From positions 32,001 through 96,000 of the forward strand of contig CAWDPO010000013.1 in the NCBI GenBank assembly GCA_963804165.1: a DNA stretch of 64,000 bases. The letters are read 5' to 3'. How positions within the stretch are numbered: position 1 is the stretch's first letter; every line of letters starts with the position of its first letter. Below are positions 42,721 through 62,166 of this stretch, in pieces. The notes under the pieces were generated by a model. That model was not told the origin of the DNA and did no database searches. It saw nothing but the letters and a program-made list of their open reading frames with translations. The stretch comes from an uncultured delta proteobacterium (GTDB lineage: Bacteria > Desulfobacterota > Binatia > UBA9968). A program made the translations under genes and the position numbers.

Positions 42721-43320
42721 CTAATGCTCGCTTAACAGCGCACGAACATCGGCCAGCACGGCCCTGGGGTCGGGCGATGGCCCAATGTACGCAAAGCGGA
42801 TCAACTTTTTTTGATCGACAACCGCAGTGAGCGGCGTGTGGTCGATGAGACCTCGGCCCTTACGCTCTACGCCTACGCCAAAGTTTTGCCAAATTTGTTT
42901 CAGCGCGATTGGATTACCTGTGAGAAACGACCAGTTATCGAATTCGGCGCCGTAACGTTTGGCGTAGGCGGTTAAAACTTTGGGCGAATCGATCTCCGGA
43001 TCCGTCGTCACCGTCACCAGTTGCACATATTTGCGTTCTTCTTTGGTAAGCCCGCTTTGAACCTGACGCAGGGACGCGGTGATCAACGGGCATACGTCAG
43101 GGCAAGTGGTATAAGCAAAGGCAACGACGACGACCTTACCTGTCATGTTTTTGAATTCGAACGGAGTTGAATTCTGATCCGTAAGCGCAAAATCGTTGAT
43201 TTGAACTCGCGTGACCCGCCGTTGCGCGCTCATTTGTCGCAGCTCGGCGGTTGTTCCGAAAGCCACAGCGCTTACAACAGCGAGCAGAATGATGATGGAG
43301 CATAAACCGCTGCGGCGCAT
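42721..43320 (-). CDS. SCO1/SenC family protein
   Basis: YTTCPDVCP, TTDPEIDSP, IDHT. Confidence 0.9.
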   Translation of the reverse strand: MRRSGLCSIIILLAVVSAVAFGTTAELRQMSAQRRVTRVQINDFALTDQNSTPFEFKNMTGKVVVVAFAYTTCPDVCPLITASLRQVQSGLTKEERKYVQLVTVTTDPEIDSPKVLTAYAKRYGAEFDNWSFLTGNPIALKQIWQNFGVGVERKGRGLIDHTPLTAVVDQKKLIRFAYIGPSPDPRAVLADVRALLSEH

Positions 43321-43324
43321 CGGC

Positions 43325-43759
43325 TTATGGTTTTTTTTCTTCGGCCGGTTCGTCATAGCCGAGGACCGTGTCCCAGGGAATGTTGCAGTGCGCTACGACC
43401 AAAGTGTCAAAGCGCTCCCACCAAGCCAGATCCCGCCCTTCGCGGCTCAGAAAACGAACCATCTGCAGCATGTCAGTGACTTCAGCGGGACGCAGAGCAG
43501 GATCAAATGCCGGCATTACGCCCCGTCCTTCGGCGATGATTCGCCTGATCTGCGAATTGCTTTTTTGCTGTACGGTGTCACGAAAGTCGGGAGTTCGGAC
43601 CGGTAAACTTACCGCTAGCGGGCCATCACCTCGGCCGCTACTTCCATGGCAACTGATGCAACGCTCGAGATAGACAGTATCCATCCGTTCGTTGCGGCCA
43701 CAGCCCGCTACTAGAACAATAAGAAAAAAAAGCGATTGTACGAATCTGCGCTGTTTCAC
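43325..43759 (-). CDS. Monoheme cytochrome c lipoprotein
   Basis: LVAGC lipobox, CISCHG..GRGDGP, MPAF; GTG start inferred. Confidence 0.85.
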   Translation of the reverse strand: MKQRRFVQSLFFLIVLVAGCGRNERMDTVYLERCISCHGSSGRGDGPLAVSLPVRTPDFRDTVQQKSNSQIRRIIAEGRGVMPAFDPALRPAEVTDMLQMVRFLSREGRDLAWWERFDTLVVAHCNIPWDTVLGYDEPAEEKKP

Positions 43760-43820
43760 CGAATATAAACACGTAACACACGTATTGTACGCTTCCAACT
43801 CGGTATGAGGTATCGCAAAG

Positions 43821-43847
43821 TTGACACGAAATCACAATTCGTGTTAC
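43821..43847. promoter_or_regulatory. Candidate NikR operator 1 (overlaps a TTGACA -35 upstream of nikR)
   Basis: TTGACAC-GAAATCACAATTC-GTGTTAC, 7-13-7 inverted repeat. Confidence 0.7.
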
Positions 43848-43866
43848 CTAATTCTGGGTTGAGCTT

Positions 43867-59209: not shown

Positions 59210-59788
59210 ATGCCGAACCCGTCGAAGCAGTTCTTTCCGTTTTTTAGTGCTCTGCCCCTGATCGCTGCCTGCCTATTCACAAACGCGGCAAGAGCTGCCC
59301 AGAACGATCGGGGAATTTTCGAGATTCAAATCAAGGATCATCGTGAAGCGATCGGTGATTTTGCCAAGTTCGATATCGCGCTCGATAAACTTCTGATCAG
59401 TCCCAGGGCGGGACTGATGTTCTGGCAAACGGGTTGGAAAGAGCTACAGCCGTCGGTCGCCGTGGTGGATCTGACCCAATACGTCGGCAAAAAAACTGCG
59501 CGAGTGTATCGCGGTGAAATTAACCCGGGATCATTCGACGCATTTCATGTAAAAATTAAGAGCATCGACGCCCTGCTGAAAAAGACCCGCCGCTCGACAT
59601 CGGTCAAAGATATCGTTGGCGCGGTGAAACTGTCTTTTCAGGTGCCCGCTAAAGGAGAGACCGTTCTCGTGCTCGATCTCGTCGTCACCGACTTTTCCGA
59701 CCACCCCCCGCGCGGCTATGAACTCGGTATCAAAGGCTACGAGCTCTACGTTAACGGCAGACTCATGGAGAGAATACCGCCCGGATGA
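59210..59788 (+). CDS. Exported beta-rich protein (DUF4382-like)
   Basis: Signal peptide; EIQIKDH..VDLTQY..GSFD..LVLDL pattern. Confidence 0.5.
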   Translation: MPNPSKQFFPFFSALPLIAACLFTNAARAAQNDRGIFEIQIKDHREAIGDFAKFDIALDKLLISPRAGLMFWQTGWKELQPSVAVVDLTQYVGKKTARVYRGEINPGSFDAFHVKIKSIDALLKKTRRSTSVKDIVGAVKLSFQVPAKGETVLVLDLVVTDFSDHPPRGYELGIKGYELYVNGRLMERIPPG

Positions 59789-60164
59789 TTATGCCTCTAG
59801 GTTCGTCGATTCGAGCTGGCGCCCTTCGAGTTACTAGCCGTCGAAGTTTTCGTGCCCGCGAAAGTTTCTCGATACTTCACAATTTCGTGACTTGAAACTT
59901 TACTCACGCCACGCGCATCCAGATCGACGACGAAGGAACACGAAAAACGCAACCTGATTAAATATTTTCTCGGCGGTCTTAGCCGCCGGCACAACAGGTC
60001 GCCGGCCCGCCCGCGCTCCCTCAGCTGATCCCGCCTCGGGACACTACGTTTCTCAATCCATCTCGTAGTCCGTCTGAAGAATCCGCGTTTTGTCCTCGGT
60101 TCCCTCATCTCTACACAAACGCTAAATTTCCCGTTAGAATCTTTCCGCTCGGTTAGCTCCGATC

Positions 60165-60812
60165 ATGGACGCATCTAAAACTCGGTTTATCCTGCTCGGC
60201 CTCGCTGTCGTTGGTTTGGGCATCGTTCTCGGCACGGCGCTCTGGCTTAGACTCGGTCCGCGCGCGCAATTCGGGCGCGGCGCGCCTGACTCTGCCCATG
60301 GCTTAAATCAGTACGGAATCGTGCCGGATTTTTCGTTCACGGAAAGAAACGGCAGCGCCATGGGCTTGGCCCAGTTACGCGGCAAAATATGGATCGCCGA
60401 CTTTATTTACACGACCTGCACCGACACTTGCCCGCTGCAAACCGCCACGATGGCCAAGTTGCAAGCGGAGTTTGCCGCCAAGCCGGATATTCAGCTGGTG
60501 TCGTTTACCGTCGATCCCGAACGCGACACACCTCAAGCCCTGACTCTTTATGCGAACAAGTATCAGGCCGATGCCAAGCGCTGGTATTTTTTGACCGGCG
60601 AGCGCGACCGAATTTTTCGTCTGATCCTGGAAGGCTTTCATTTAGCCGTGGCGTCGATGCCCAACAATGGCGACCCCAGCGGCATGATCCCACACAGCCC
60701 ACGTTTTGTGTTGGTGGACAAGGAAGCGCGCATACGCGGGTACTACGACAGCCGTGAATCGGCGGCGCTGGTCCGGCTGAAAAACGACATCGACAGCTTA
60801 ACGAAGGGATAG
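60165..60812 (+). CDS. SCO1/SenC family protein
   Basis: N-terminal TM; YTTCTDTCP, TVDPERDTP, PHSPRFVLVD..IRGYYD. Confidence 0.92.
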   Translation: MDASKTRFILLGLAVVGLGIVLGTALWLRLGPRAQFGRGAPDSAHGLNQYGIVPDFSFTERNGSAMGLAQLRGKIWIADFIYTTCTDTCPLQTATMAKLQAEFAAKPDIQLVSFTVDPERDTPQALTLYANKYQADAKRWYFLTGERDRIFRLILEGFHLAVASMPNNGDPSGMIPHSPRFVLVDKEARIRGYYDSRESAALVRLKNDIDSLTKG

Positions 60813-60817
60813 CAGCG

Positions 60818-61693
60818 ATGGCCAACGAGAGAAGTAGAAAAGGCAAACAAGCGACGGCGAGTGTGGTGATGCGCGAGGGGCCCAATTGGCCGCTATTCGG
60901 TCTCGCGCTGCTCGGCATGGCGCTATCCGGCTATCTCACTTTTACGGCGTGGCAAGGGAACCTCGTGGCTTTTTGCACCGAAGGGACGGGCTGTGACGTT
61001 GTGCTCAATAGCCGCTGGTCCACGCTCCTCGGCATGCCGACTTCGTTCTGGGGTTTTCTCACCTACGCGCTGCTCGCAGCGGTGGCCTGGAACAAAAATG
61101 CCGCGGATCAATGGCGTTGGGCGTGGGTGATTGCGTTTTTCGGTTTGCTTTACAGCCTGTATTTGACCTCGATCTCGTTTTTCGAATTGCAGGCCGCCTG
61201 CCCATACTGCCTGACTTCGCTCGGTTTGATGGCGGCCATCGTCATCGTTACGACGTTTCAAAAACCGGCCAATTTGCCGAAATTTTCCTGGGGTCCGTGG
61301 TTGGCAAAAACTGTCGGCGTCGCCGTAGTCATGATTGTCGCGCTGCATTCCTATTACGCCGGCTACTGGGGCAATGCCCCGGGACCGGAAGACCCGTGGG
61401 TCCGCGGTCTTGCCGAGCATCTCTCGAAGACCGACGCCAAATTTTACGGCGCCTCTTGGTGTCCCCACTGTTCCGAGCAAAAACACTTGTTCGGCAGCTC
61501 GGTCAAACGCATCCCCTATGTGGAATGCAGCCCGGGCGGCCAAAACGCCCCCTCCGCGCCGGTCTGTAAAGAAAAAAATATTACAAACTATCCGACGTGG
61601 ATCATTAACGGACAGCGCTACACCGGCATCCAACCTTTAGATGCGCTCGCGCAATTGAGTCAATATAATAAGGGGCAAGGGGGCAAGCCATGA
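60818..61693 (+). CDS. Vitamin K epoxide reductase (VKOR)-thioredoxin fusion
   Basis: FCTEGTGCDVVLNSRWS and CPYC in VKOR domain; FYGASWCPHC, YVEC, YPTW in Trx domain. Confidence 0.93.
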   Translation: MANERSRKGKQATASVVMREGPNWPLFGLALLGMALSGYLTFTAWQGNLVAFCTEGTGCDVVLNSRWSTLLGMPTSFWGFLTYALLAAVAWNKNAADQWRWAWVIAFFGLLYSLYLTSISFFELQAACPYCLTSLGLMAAIVIVTTFQKPANLPKFSWGPWLAKTVGVAVVMIVALHSYYAGYWGNAPGPEDPWVRGLAEHLSKTDAKFYGASWCPHCSEQKHLFGSSVKRIPYVECSPGGQNAPSAPVCKEKNITNYPTWIINGQRYTGIQPLDALAQLSQYNKGQGGKP

Positions 61694-62166
61694 AATCGGG
61701 CGAATCGGTCTTTAAGCTAACGATGCTTTTGGCGATCCTCGCGGCGACGGTTCCATTTGCGCCTCGATCAGCGCAAGCCGATCCTTCGAAGTATCCCGAG
61801 TTCGCCCTGCAAACACTGCCTGATAATATCACGCCTGCGTTTATCAATATCGAGGAGCTGGTCGCAGCGTTAAAGGCGGGCGCCAAGCCGGTGATCATCG
61901 ACGTGCGCAGCGATGAAGAGTTCCGCGAAGTACATATCTTGGGCGCCGTCTCCGCGCCGCTGGGGGAATTCAAGGAGTATCTGAAAAGCATTCCACGGGA
62001 CCGGCCGGTCGTCCTCTATTGAGCGTGCCCCCATCACCTGGCCAGTTTGGCCTATGGCATTCTCTATGAAAACGGCTACCGCAACATGAAAGTACTCGAT
62101 GAAGGTCTCACCGGCTGGTACCAGAAACGCTATCCCATGGAAGGCACCAAGGCTCCTGGATCGTGA
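61690..62166 (+). CDS. Exported rhodanese-domain protein, probable selenoprotein (LYUACP, UGA 62020-62022)
   Basis: IIDVRS..HILGA..PVVLY-TGA-ACPHHLASLAYGILYENGYRNMKVLDEGLTGW completes the rhodanese fold to TGA 62166; hairpin GGCCA-GTT-TGGCC at 62040-62052. Confidence 0.88.

Follow-up and report, generated by a model that had tools for sequence, protein, structure and literature searches.

TonB-dependent nickel uptake under the control of the repressor NikR is represented in Helicobacter by FrpB4 and FecA3, and metal-responsive expression behind an arrest peptide is represented by CruR and CutF. In CruR, the CXXC and RAPP motifs are described as lying 45 residues apart and a 162-nt spacer as holding a Rho-dependent terminator in a C>G bubble, the copper-uptake receptor being switched off when copper is present (PMC9426467), and the receptor under CruR control, CrtA, is reported to supply copper to heme-copper respiratory oxidases (PMC12914433). 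In CutF of R. capsulatus, a related arrest is described as turning a copper oxidase on as copper rises (10.1101/2022.11.11.516240; 10.1101/2025.02.05.636593), and the former source sorts CutF-like proteins into 29 sequence clusters with Cys, His or mixed sites, places His-only clusters beside HupE/UreJ genes and raises nickel or cobalt sensing as a possibility for some leaders. For delta-proteobacteria, the NikR signal is given as GTGTTAC-N13/14-GTAACAC and its reversed form (PMC545781), Cox11 is defined by a two-cysteine CFCF motif which binds Cu(I) (PMC7558416) and a rhodanese-related sulfurtransferase is listed among selenoprotein families in PMC1088965 and PMC9312934. Little is understood of how envelope enzymes are supplied with copper and nickel beyond a few model proteobacteria. 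Here, we have investigated an island at positions 42721–62166 of a 64,000-nt stretch (the window; positions 32001–96000, forward strand, of contig CAWDPO010000013.1, assembly GCA_963804165.1; contig C13 of genome G000) from a member of the Binatia, abundant uncultured soil bacteria, in which genes for NikR, metal importers, copper chaperones and thiol-redox enzymes stand side by side.

A mosaic of parts of known kinds describes the island better than one new system does. With moderate confidence, we regard it as governed by two switches, a NikR-controlled uptake unit and a leader-controlled copper-chaperone and thiol-redox unit, probably serving heme-copper oxidases. We infer the regulatory and biochemical steps, the metal specificity of importer and leader and the client from sequence, synteny and analogy. 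In the first unit (43.8–52.4 kb), NikR would bind operators before nikR and before the receptor gene and, when nickel is replete, repress an uptake route composed of an outer-membrane receptor, TonB, a major facilitator superfamily (MFS) permease, a TroA-type ATP-binding cassette (ABC) importer and a small His-rich periplasmic binding protein. In the second unit (52.5–62.2 kb), a CruR/CutF-type leader would be translated ahead of the chaperone genes and the nascent leader chain, with its His cluster and a Cys 47 residues from RAPP, would decide whether the ribosome stalls, by analogy with CruR. By stalling, the ribosome would cover a C-rich, Rho-type termination zone within the spacer of 220 nt, and downstream expression would thereby follow metal supply. 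Three SCO and three Cox11-like proteins would then bind copper and pass it on in the periplasm, their cysteines being reduced by TlpA and re-oxidised by VKOR-Trx and the coupled selenocysteine (Sec) rhodanese, while DUF4382 may replace the missing PCuAC. The most likely recipients would be the heme-copper oxidases of the genome.

Gene order in relatives carries much of this argument. It was compared in 14 stretches taken from eight related genomes, against which 28 window proteins were searched, and in a set of 33 loci, mostly from Binatia with some labelled Methylomirabilota, Nitrospinota and others, obtained by a pattern scan with one genome per species; the scan was seeded with five CFCF-type Cox11-like proteins and the set is therefore biased to the CFCF form. 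In the same-genus genome G056, 18 of the 23 island genes are found with their order and flanking genes unchanged (HD-KH protein, MTHFS and ZapA on one side, QueC and DUF58 on the other), the first methyltransferase, three ABC genes and one Cox11-like copy being missing, and in G105, of another genus, a shorter island of nine of the 23 genes lies within the same flanks. A core of importer, Cox11-like, DUF4382, SCO, VKOR-Trx and rhodanese genes is syntenic in three Binatia families, the two further families having NikR (family f3 only), ZnuA, ATPase, permease, His protein (in G113), Cox11-like, DUF4382, SCO, VKOR and rhodanese (family f2) genes. Cox11-like, SCO and VKOR genes occur together in 23 of the 33 loci, an ABC importer immediately precedes the Cox11-like gene, in the same orientation, in 18, and the rhodanese and NikR are present in 11 and six, respectively. 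The gene arrangement is more than chance. The earlier note on this DNA, made from the sequence alone, had proposed an island joining metal import with periplasmic metal and thiol maturation, to be refuted by scattering of the genes in relatives. An island joining metal import with periplasmic chaperone and thiol-redox genes is borne out and is conserved, as the genes are not scattered in relatives.

Among 41 genomes of the order, Cox11-like genes were detected in 29 and NikR in 15, and in nine of these 15 nikR is located 4–17 kb from the Cox11-like gene on one contig. The sole NikR gene of G000, G056, G020, G047 and G113 heads the Cox11-like cluster in each. In G020 (locus L024) the order is NikR, a weak NicO-like protein (23.5 bits), two outer-membrane channel paralogues, a RAPP leader, DUF4198 (77 bits), CopC (72 bits), CopD (81 bits) fused to a His protein, a Cox11-like protein with QCFCF, SCO, VKOR and a second His protein. 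Thus, depending on lineage, the slot between NikR and the chaperones is occupied by CopC/CopD, by a ZnuABC-type system or by a TonB receptor with an MFS transporter. An interchangeable importer slot argues for a functional tie between import and chaperones, and with the CopC/CopD pair of G020 a leader of the same kind is followed by genuine copper proteins. The gene immediately upstream of nikR at L024 (11520–13925, minus strand) codes for an 801-aa protein with multiple membrane passes and a spermine/spermidine synthase domain (40 bits).

The uptake unit contains the following features, labelled, as elsewhere in the island, from Pfam and NCBIfam.

43821–43847, no strand: NikR-box-like inverted repeat TTGACAC-N13-GTGTTAC, matching 12 of 14 positions of GTAACAC-N13-GTGTTAC
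43867–44283, plus strand: NikR ribbon-helix-helix (RHH) nickel-responsive repressor (PF08753, 94.7 bits; PF01402, 32.3 bits)
44299–44312, no strand: second copy of the extended half-site GGTAACACGAATTG, ∼35–48 nt upstream of the probable receptor ATG
44311–46422, probable ATG at 44347, plus strand: TonB-dependent outer-membrane receptor (plug 61.4 bits, barrel 69.7 bits)
46416–47639, plus strand: MFS inner-membrane transporter, overlapping the receptor gene by 7 nt (PF07690, 161.8 bits)
47644–48429, plus strand: TonB (PF03544, 73 bits)
49084–50094, plus strand: ZnuA/TroA-type binding protein (PF01297, 225 bits)
50098–50961, plus strand: ABC ATPase (PF00005, 105.7 bits)
51076–51912, plus strand: ABC-3 permease (PF00950, 219 bits)
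52045–52449, plus strand: exported His-rich 134-aa Ig-like beta-sandwich protein (no Pfam family)

The NikR protein contains both the RHH (PF01402) and NikR_C (PF08753) domains and scores 131 bits to P. horikoshii NikR (2bj1), and its QH, LHIH and NC residues are matched by identical ones in the alignment with 2bj1 and 2ca9; the aligned His/His/His/Cys positions are those which we take to be the nickel-site ligands. When the window and 47 loci were searched for both consensus forms of the operator, allowing two mismatches at most, box-like sites were detected only beside nikR. The window site at 43821–43847 lies 20–46 nt before the nikR ATG, with a second, 2-mismatch site at 43753–43779 in the same divergent region, and 1-mismatch boxes lie beside nikR in L024, L033, L049, L050 and L056; in family f3 (L025/L031), GTAACACGAATT is located between nikR and znuA. 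An exact 10-mer, GTAACACGAA, at 34125 was dismissed as a NikR site, being inside 23S rRNA, and half-site matches near the second RAPP leaders of family f3 were too short to count. The nickel-site residues, the box-like sites beside nikR and the half-site before the receptor make it probable that NikR functions as a nickel repressor of the importer genes next to it.

The receptor has no specific NCBIfam family and matches solved receptors at plug level only, the best being BtuB at 43 bits. The binding protein has His, His, His and Asp at four positions aligned to the ligands of PsaA, whose numbering we assumed, and these residues do not discriminate the metal. Among the 41 genomes of the order, urease was detected in eight, NiFe hydrogenase in four plus one fragment, Ni-SOD in one and LarA in none. 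At least one of urease, NiFe hydrogenase and Ni-SOD is present in seven of the 15 NikR-bearing and in six of the 26 NikR-lacking genomes, and the association of NikR with nickel enzymes is weak. The ATPase-permease gap of 114 nt is filled by a 23-nt inverted repeat (50983–51005/51040–51062, 87% complementary, 34-nt loop), which could be an mRNA-stability or attenuation element.

The small exported His-rich protein which ends this unit has four invariant His residues (H80, H82, H108 and H119) and an AlphaFold2 core with a predicted local distance difference test (pLDDT) score >90. Foldseek returned generic FnIII/Ig matches only, with CopC at rank 32, and no function follows from these. The domain is fused to the CopD C-terminus at L024 5829–7118 (minus strand) and follows ZnuABC in other lineages; the fusion suggests that it hands metal to or from an inner-membrane copper permease.

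The second switch is represented by a leader and the region which follows it.

52517–52921, plus strand: RAPP-ending 134-aa CruR/CutF-like leader (no Pfam family)
52842–52971, plus strand: C-rich, G-poor rut-like stretch (C 37–41%, G 17–24%), covering the leader end and the start of the 220-nt spacer

The leader carries a transmembrane segment, PHRVHH, a His-rich stretch, a single Cys81 (CSVL) and RAPP at residues 129–132 of 134, followed by two residues and the stop; it ends RAPPLL, while its orthologues in G056 and G020 end SQRAPPLI and SQRAPPLA, respectively. Of 62,534 G000 frames of at least 60 aa, 16 end in RAPP plus at most five residues, and only the window leader among these combines a hydrophobic N-terminal segment with a His-rich body. 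H34, V36, H37, H38, H71, C81 and RAPP are invariant in seven of seven aligned orthologues, in all of which Cys81 is separated from RAPP by 47 residues without gaps. The RAPP leader reported in the earlier note is therefore real. A profile of the seven orthologues detected 342 cluster representatives at E ≤0.001, and among the best 150 of these, 131 end RA[PG]P and 148 carry HxVHH. All 131 RA[PG]P-ending relatives have a single Cys 46–49 residues upstream, located at 47 in 109, and CxxC, CxC or CxxxC starting at that Cys was observed in none of the 131. The protein-atlas feature score between the leader and a DUF2946 cluster is 0.96, and PF11162 (DUF2946) weakly matches only eight of 61 leader-family members. 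RAPP, the spacing, the spacer and the C-rich stretch are common with CruR but the sensor differs and the DUF2946 model is nearly silent, and the leader is thus assigned, from these sequence features, to a distinct His and single-Cys branch of the CruR/CutF (DUF2946) arrest-peptide kind. This branch, with its 342 cluster representatives, would extend nascent-chain metal sensing beyond the tested copper cases.

Leaders of this branch precede BNR, TlpA and Cox11-like genes at two loci, DUF4198, CopC and CopD at four and VKOR at one Methylomirabilales locus. In family f3 and G020-type loci, a second leader type (LPxHxH, CxCY, RAPP) stands before another, distant ZnuA-like operon. It is located at L027 11018–11350, L050 2039–2347 and L056 3842–4150 (all minus strand) and in L032, L033 and L053, and the ZnuA-like operon behind it also ends with a copy of the His protein.

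Downstream of the spacer, and at the divergent left end, the copper-chaperone genes and the putative cysteine reductase are encoded.

42721–43356, minus strand: SCO1/SenC thioredoxin-fold copper chaperone (PF02630, 95.7 bits; CPDVCP, later DHT)
54473–55054, plus strand: TlpA/ResA-like membrane-anchored thioredoxin, WCDPC (PF00578, 94.5 bits; PF08534, 75.2 bits)
55061–55993, plus strand: Cox11-like copy 1, ACGSLSP (PF04442, 19.9 bits, below cut-off)
56015–56932, plus strand: Cox11-like copy 2, QCGFLLP (PF04442, 27.6 bits)
57662–58567, plus strand: Cox11-like copy 3, ECALLLP (PF04442, 31.4 bits)
58407–59174, probable start 58545, plus strand: SCO1/SenC, CPDVCP and QHT (PF02630, 100 bits)
59210–59788, plus strand: DUF4382-like exported protein (PF14321, 22.7 bits, below cut-off)
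60165–60812, plus strand: SCO1/SenC, CTDTCP and PHS (PF02630, 99.8 bits)

All three SCO proteins keep CxxxC and the distal His, presumably the copper ligands. The gene labels proposed earlier were all reproduced, those for Cox11 (19.9–31.4 bits) and DUF4382 (22.7 bits) marginally, the Pfam cut-off being 25 for both PF04442 and PF14321. The three Cox11-like copies, of 300 aa each, are the sole matches to the Cox11 model in G000, and in ten related genomes of the order the cluster gene is the sole Cox11 homologue. In a class sample of 121 genomes, Cox11 homologues were found in 10 of 15 genomes of the order and in none of 106 other Binatia; with the third Cox11-like protein as query, nine of the 121 matched, all of the order, and the same protein has 600 database homologues. 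In the order-sample search, QCFCF is kept in families f2, f3 and part of f1, whose proteins score 85–105 bits, the window copies score 22–33 bits and multiple low-scoring copies are confined to family f1. His242 and Cys258 are invariant in a 13-sequence alignment, and in a 32-sequence alignment Cys258 is invariant and His242 is present in at least 90%. The AlphaFold2 model of the third copy (mean pLDDT 88.5) consists of a transmembrane helix (residues 7–33), a 140-residue alpha/beta domain and a sandwich, for which the top Foldseek match is apoCox11 (1so9; E 1e-5, TM 0.68 of the target, root mean square deviation 2.7 Å). Thus, the window proteins have the Cox11 scaffold and are not filed as Cox11, because the two-cysteine motif is not found in G000. 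DUF4382 adjoins the Cox11-like gene in most of the 33 loci and has no solved relative. PCuAC was found in none of five genomes, the control being positive in four, and DUF4382, a constant neighbour of Cox11-like and SCO genes, may therefore fill the place of PCuAC.

The island ends with two translationally coupled redox genes.

60818–61693, plus strand: VKOR-Trx fusion, WCPHC, disulfide-forming quinone reductase (PF07884, 88.1 bits)
61690–62166, plus strand: exported rhodanese with in-frame TGA, its start overlapping the VKOR stop by 4 nt

The VKOR-Trx protein scores 176 bits to Synechococcus VKOR-Trx (3kp9/4nv2) over residues 28–287, with WCPHC conserved. In the rhodanese, a UGA at 62020–62022 falls within the motif LY-U-ACPHH, and reading of the TGA as Sec yields a complete rhodanese domain (60.6 bits). 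All 14 orthologous loci have the TGA, and the sequence to either side of it is conserved. Among the best 120 database homologues, all but two end near residue 110, one of these two reads W at the TGA codon and a Cys form was not seen. A hairpin, GGCCA-GUU-UGGCC, at 62040–62052 (+21 to +33 after the UGA) is kept in 12–13 of 13 sequences, and G000 encodes Sec machinery (tRNA-Sec at C24:201780; SelA, 536 bits). The NF041203 model (LYCAU rhodanese) gives 63.5 bits, below its cut-off of 115. The Sec-rhodanese proposed in the earlier note is, as judged from the UGA kept in all 14 orthologues, a real predicted selenoprotein.

Oxidase, hydrogenase and urease genes are absent from the window, as are other metalloenzyme clients, in agreement with the earlier note; the remainder of the window holds an rRNA operon and housekeeping and metabolic genes. 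COX1 is present at three loci in G000 and in eight of nine other cluster-bearing genomes tested. An aa3 oxidase, encoded outside the window, is thus a plausible client which is not tied to the cluster, the link being weak. The co-occurrence with candidate clients which the earlier note had suggested is accordingly seen for COX1 in cluster-bearing genomes but extends to genomes of the order lacking a Cox11-like gene, and the association with nickel enzymes is weak. The copper membrane monooxygenase family PF02461 was detected in none of five genomes in a search whose control was also silent everywhere and which is therefore uninformative; the Binatota paper reports this enzyme in only nine of 48 Binatales genomes.

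Five further features complete the island, which holds 23 tightly packed genes in the open reading frame listing; the earlier note was correct as to the contiguous run and gave the count as 21.

43325–43798, minus strand: small lipoprotein-type cytochrome c (CISCH), divergent from nikR (PF13442, 35 bits)
48466–49077, plus strand: class I S-adenosylmethionine (SAM) methyltransferase, His-rich N-terminus (PF13649, 46.5 bits)
53142–54476, plus strand: BNR/Asp-box beta-propeller lipoprotein (PF13088, 37.4 bits)
57035–57628, plus strand: second methyltransferase, N-terminal hydrophobic leader (NF041081, 128.6 bits, cut-off 200)
51913–52044, 52922–53141, 56933–57034 and 59789–60164: larger intergenic gaps

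Genes overlap or are separated by <10 nt at several junctions, for example receptor/MFS, BNR/TlpA and VKOR/rhodanese. The pair of SCO and cytochrome c genes at the left end is also found in G056 and G105. The first methyltransferase has no NCBIfam equivalog and no match at the same-genus locus L017. The second, placed by the earlier note after all three Cox11-like genes, lies between the second and third; it resembles an archaeal protein-lysine N-methyltransferase and, with identities of 71% in G056 and 82% in G105, is the best-conserved gene of the island between genera. It starts with a signal-peptide-like segment ending AANA|QDS, and an exported SAM enzyme would be odd. The BNR lipoprotein is confined to this genus, with an orthologue at L017, and carries CECCK and SCPHSGPS motifs, kept in the G056 orthologue, which could be a metal site on a sialidase-like fold; for this protein and DUF4382, a search against solved structures gave nothing informative. 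Rfam detected rRNA and tRNA only across the window and no riboswitch in the island. The complete rRNA operon (5S, 23S, two tRNAs and 16S; 31744–37192, minus strand) lies upstream of the island at a distance of ∼5 kb and could help to fix the taxonomic position of this metagenome-assembled genome. The assembly comprises 7.5 Mb in 46 contigs at 81% completeness and 5% contamination, compared with 2.5–7.1 Mb, mostly 4–5 Mb, in relatives of the same order, and one COX1 gene on C33 is broken across two frames (8526–9287 and 9250–9927); the bin may contain more than one strain, or assembly errors.

Several observations weigh against two switches serving copper delivery. Each window Cox11-like copy has one Cys, the second Cys of CFCF being lost, and the window leader lacks the CXXC/CxxxC metal motif of CruR/CutF and is unmatched by PF11162, as is the whole genome at E up to 10. 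His-rich CutF-like leaders are tied in print to nickel and cobalt genes and, consequently, the second unit may not respond to copper. No characterised precedent for NikR heading a TroA-type importer beside copper genes was found in the literature, and eight of the 15 NikR-bearing genomes, including G000, lack urease, NiFe hydrogenase, Ni-SOD and LarA. COX1 is also present in four of five genomes of the order without a Cox11-like gene which, combined with the absence of Cox11 from 106 Binatia outside the order, suggests that the cluster is accessory to, and not required for, the aa3 oxidase. The hairpin after the UGA, which resembles a selenocysteine insertion sequence, shows no compensatory changes and overlaps conserved codons. 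Finally, a promoter and terminator scan gave a result at chance level and a search for sequencing runs containing the stretch listed none of RNA, with DNA shares no higher than 0.07; the transcription units are therefore guesses.

Three other explanations were considered. The island may represent juxtaposition without coupling, the interval between ZapA and QueC acting as a hot spot which gathers independent metal and envelope operons (NikR nickel uptake, a zinc/manganese-type ABC importer, copper chaperones for oxidases and a general disulfide-bond system) with no common pathway. This is possible, if rather unlikely. Module content does vary within constant flanks, as NikR, the receptor and the ABC genes are missing from G105, the first methyltransferase and the ABC importer from G056, and G020 has CopC/CopD instead, and NikR is absent from all 17 family f2 genomes although Cox11-like genes are present in 12 of them. 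This modular variation, together with the plausible aa3 oxidase client encoded elsewhere in the genome, also speaks against the single assembly line for an unknown client that the earlier note had envisaged. The His3Asp set in the binding protein is that of TroA-type proteins for Zn, Mn or Fe, VKOR-Trx serves cyanobacteria as a general oxidant and larger gaps interrupt the island at 51913–52044, 52922–53141 and 59789–60164. Independent operons do not, however, readily accommodate a co-oriented importer immediately before the Cox11-like gene in 18 loci of different species, the joint presence of Cox11-like, SCO and VKOR genes in 23, a His protein fused to CopD in one lineage and behind ZnuABC in others, or the position of the sole nikR at the head of the cluster in five genomes.

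A second alternative retains a common pathway and alters the metal: NikR and the His-type leader would both sense one non-copper metal, most likely nickel, and the island would be the first periplasmic handling line for it, built on repurposed copper-chaperone folds. A nickel-specific TroA-family importer would feed single-Cys Cox11-like paralogues and the four-His protein which, with the Sec-rhodanese and VKOR, would load or protect the metal for an unknown exported client. We consider this improbable in both its general form and these particulars. It draws on the canonical NikR with operator-like sites at the head of the island, HxVHH and a His-rich stretch in place of CXXC in the leader, the HupE/UreJ Ni/Co neighbours described for His-rich CutF-like leaders (10.1101/2022.11.11.516240), the loss of one copper cysteine from all three Cox11-like copies, which are multiplied only in the family of the window, the weak NicO-like transporter in G020 and the eight NikR-bearing genomes without the four known nickel enzyme families, which leave room for an unknown client. 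Against these stand the CxxxC and His kept in three SCO proteins, QCFCF in the ancestral and most widespread Cox11-like form, CopC/CopD behind the same leader type in the same operon of G020 and a family f2 core without NikR. In addition, we know of no periplasmic nickel enzyme which needs thiol chaperones. Least probable is a copper stress defence, in which a CutF-like leader would switch the genes on at high periplasmic copper, SCO and Cox11-like proteins would buffer the metal and thiol enzymes would repair cysteines. CutF-type leaders do induce a detoxifying oxidase when copper rises, the multiple SCO and Cox11-like copies could buffer, and TlpA, VKOR-Trx and the Sec-rhodanese fit thiol repair, but the island contains importers, Pfam found no efflux pump, multicopper oxidase or CusF-type gene in it and the long spacer with a C>G bubble resembles the CruR uptake switch, which is off with copper, and not the short stem-loop of CutF. 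If the two switches of the preferred reading integrate nickel and copper, the island would provide an example of cross-metal control of cuproprotein maturation.

A literature search found no published description of this cluster. Its parts nevertheless map to described kinds, namely NikR and its operator, CruR/CutF leaders, SCO/Cox11/TlpA factors, a Synechococcus-type VKOR-Trx and a rhodanese selenoprotein, and the claim of an undescribed system is not sustained. What is new lies at the level of variants: the His and single-Cys leader branch, an extended, multiplied and ligand-depleted Cox11 lineage, the Sec-rhodanese/VKOR/SCO trio and a NikR which seems, from the predicted sites, to govern a TroA-type importer. 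With NikR regulons for TonB-dependent nickel uptake, the locus shares a canonical NikR whose gene is accompanied by an operator of the GTAACAC-N13-GTGTTAC type and followed by genes for a TonB receptor and TonB, but the regulated set appears to include an MFS transporter and a ZnuA/TroA-family importer instead of NikABCDE, NikMNQO or NiCoT, and it abuts copper-chaperone genes. The chaperones resemble Cox11/CtaG (1so9/1sp0) in having one N-terminal transmembrane helix and a periplasmic Ig-like sandwich, with CFCF kept in relatives. They differ in the 140-residue alpha/beta domain between helix and sandwich, in the single Cys of all three window copies and in their confinement, in the class sample, to one Binatia order, in which aa3 oxidase genes are present without a Cox11-like gene.

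The VKOR-Trx protein shows full-length homology to that of Synechococcus, with the CxxC of the Trx domain kept, and differs in being translationally coupled to an exported Sec-rhodanese and in its constant SCO neighbour. The rhodanese itself belongs to a known kind of selenoprotein, its U-x-C order being a variant: as in NF041203 (LYCAU) and the TsoB rhodanese/DsbD protein (NF045694), Sec lies in the active-site loop of the rhodanese domain and, as in TsoB, the protein is associated with a membrane thiol-disulfide protein, whereas the LY-U-A-C order places Sec first, unlike LYCAU of NF041203, and a signal peptide and VKOR partner are added. The closest parallel to the second switch is CruR (Bp2923) of Bordetella pertussis and, with it, CutF. 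Shared features include a small open reading frame with an N-terminal hydrophobic segment, RAPP 2–3 residues before the stop and a position at the head of metal-homeostasis genes, as well as, for CruR, a fixed distance from ligand to RAPP (47 residues here, 45 ± 2 from CXXC in CruR) and a long spacer with a C>G bubble (220 nt here, 162 nt in CruR). In contrast, CXXC/CxxxC is replaced by one invariant Cys, an invariant HxVHH and a variable His-rich stretch, and the leader is followed by chaperones and thiol enzymes (DUF4198, CopC and CopD in relatives) and not by a TonB receptor or multicopper oxidase. Compared with cruR-crtA-crpH, the locus would follow, by analogy, the same logic of leader-controlled uptake and delivery serving heme-copper oxidases, but here the receptor is encoded upstream of the leader, is predicted to be under NikR and has no specific likeness to solved receptors.

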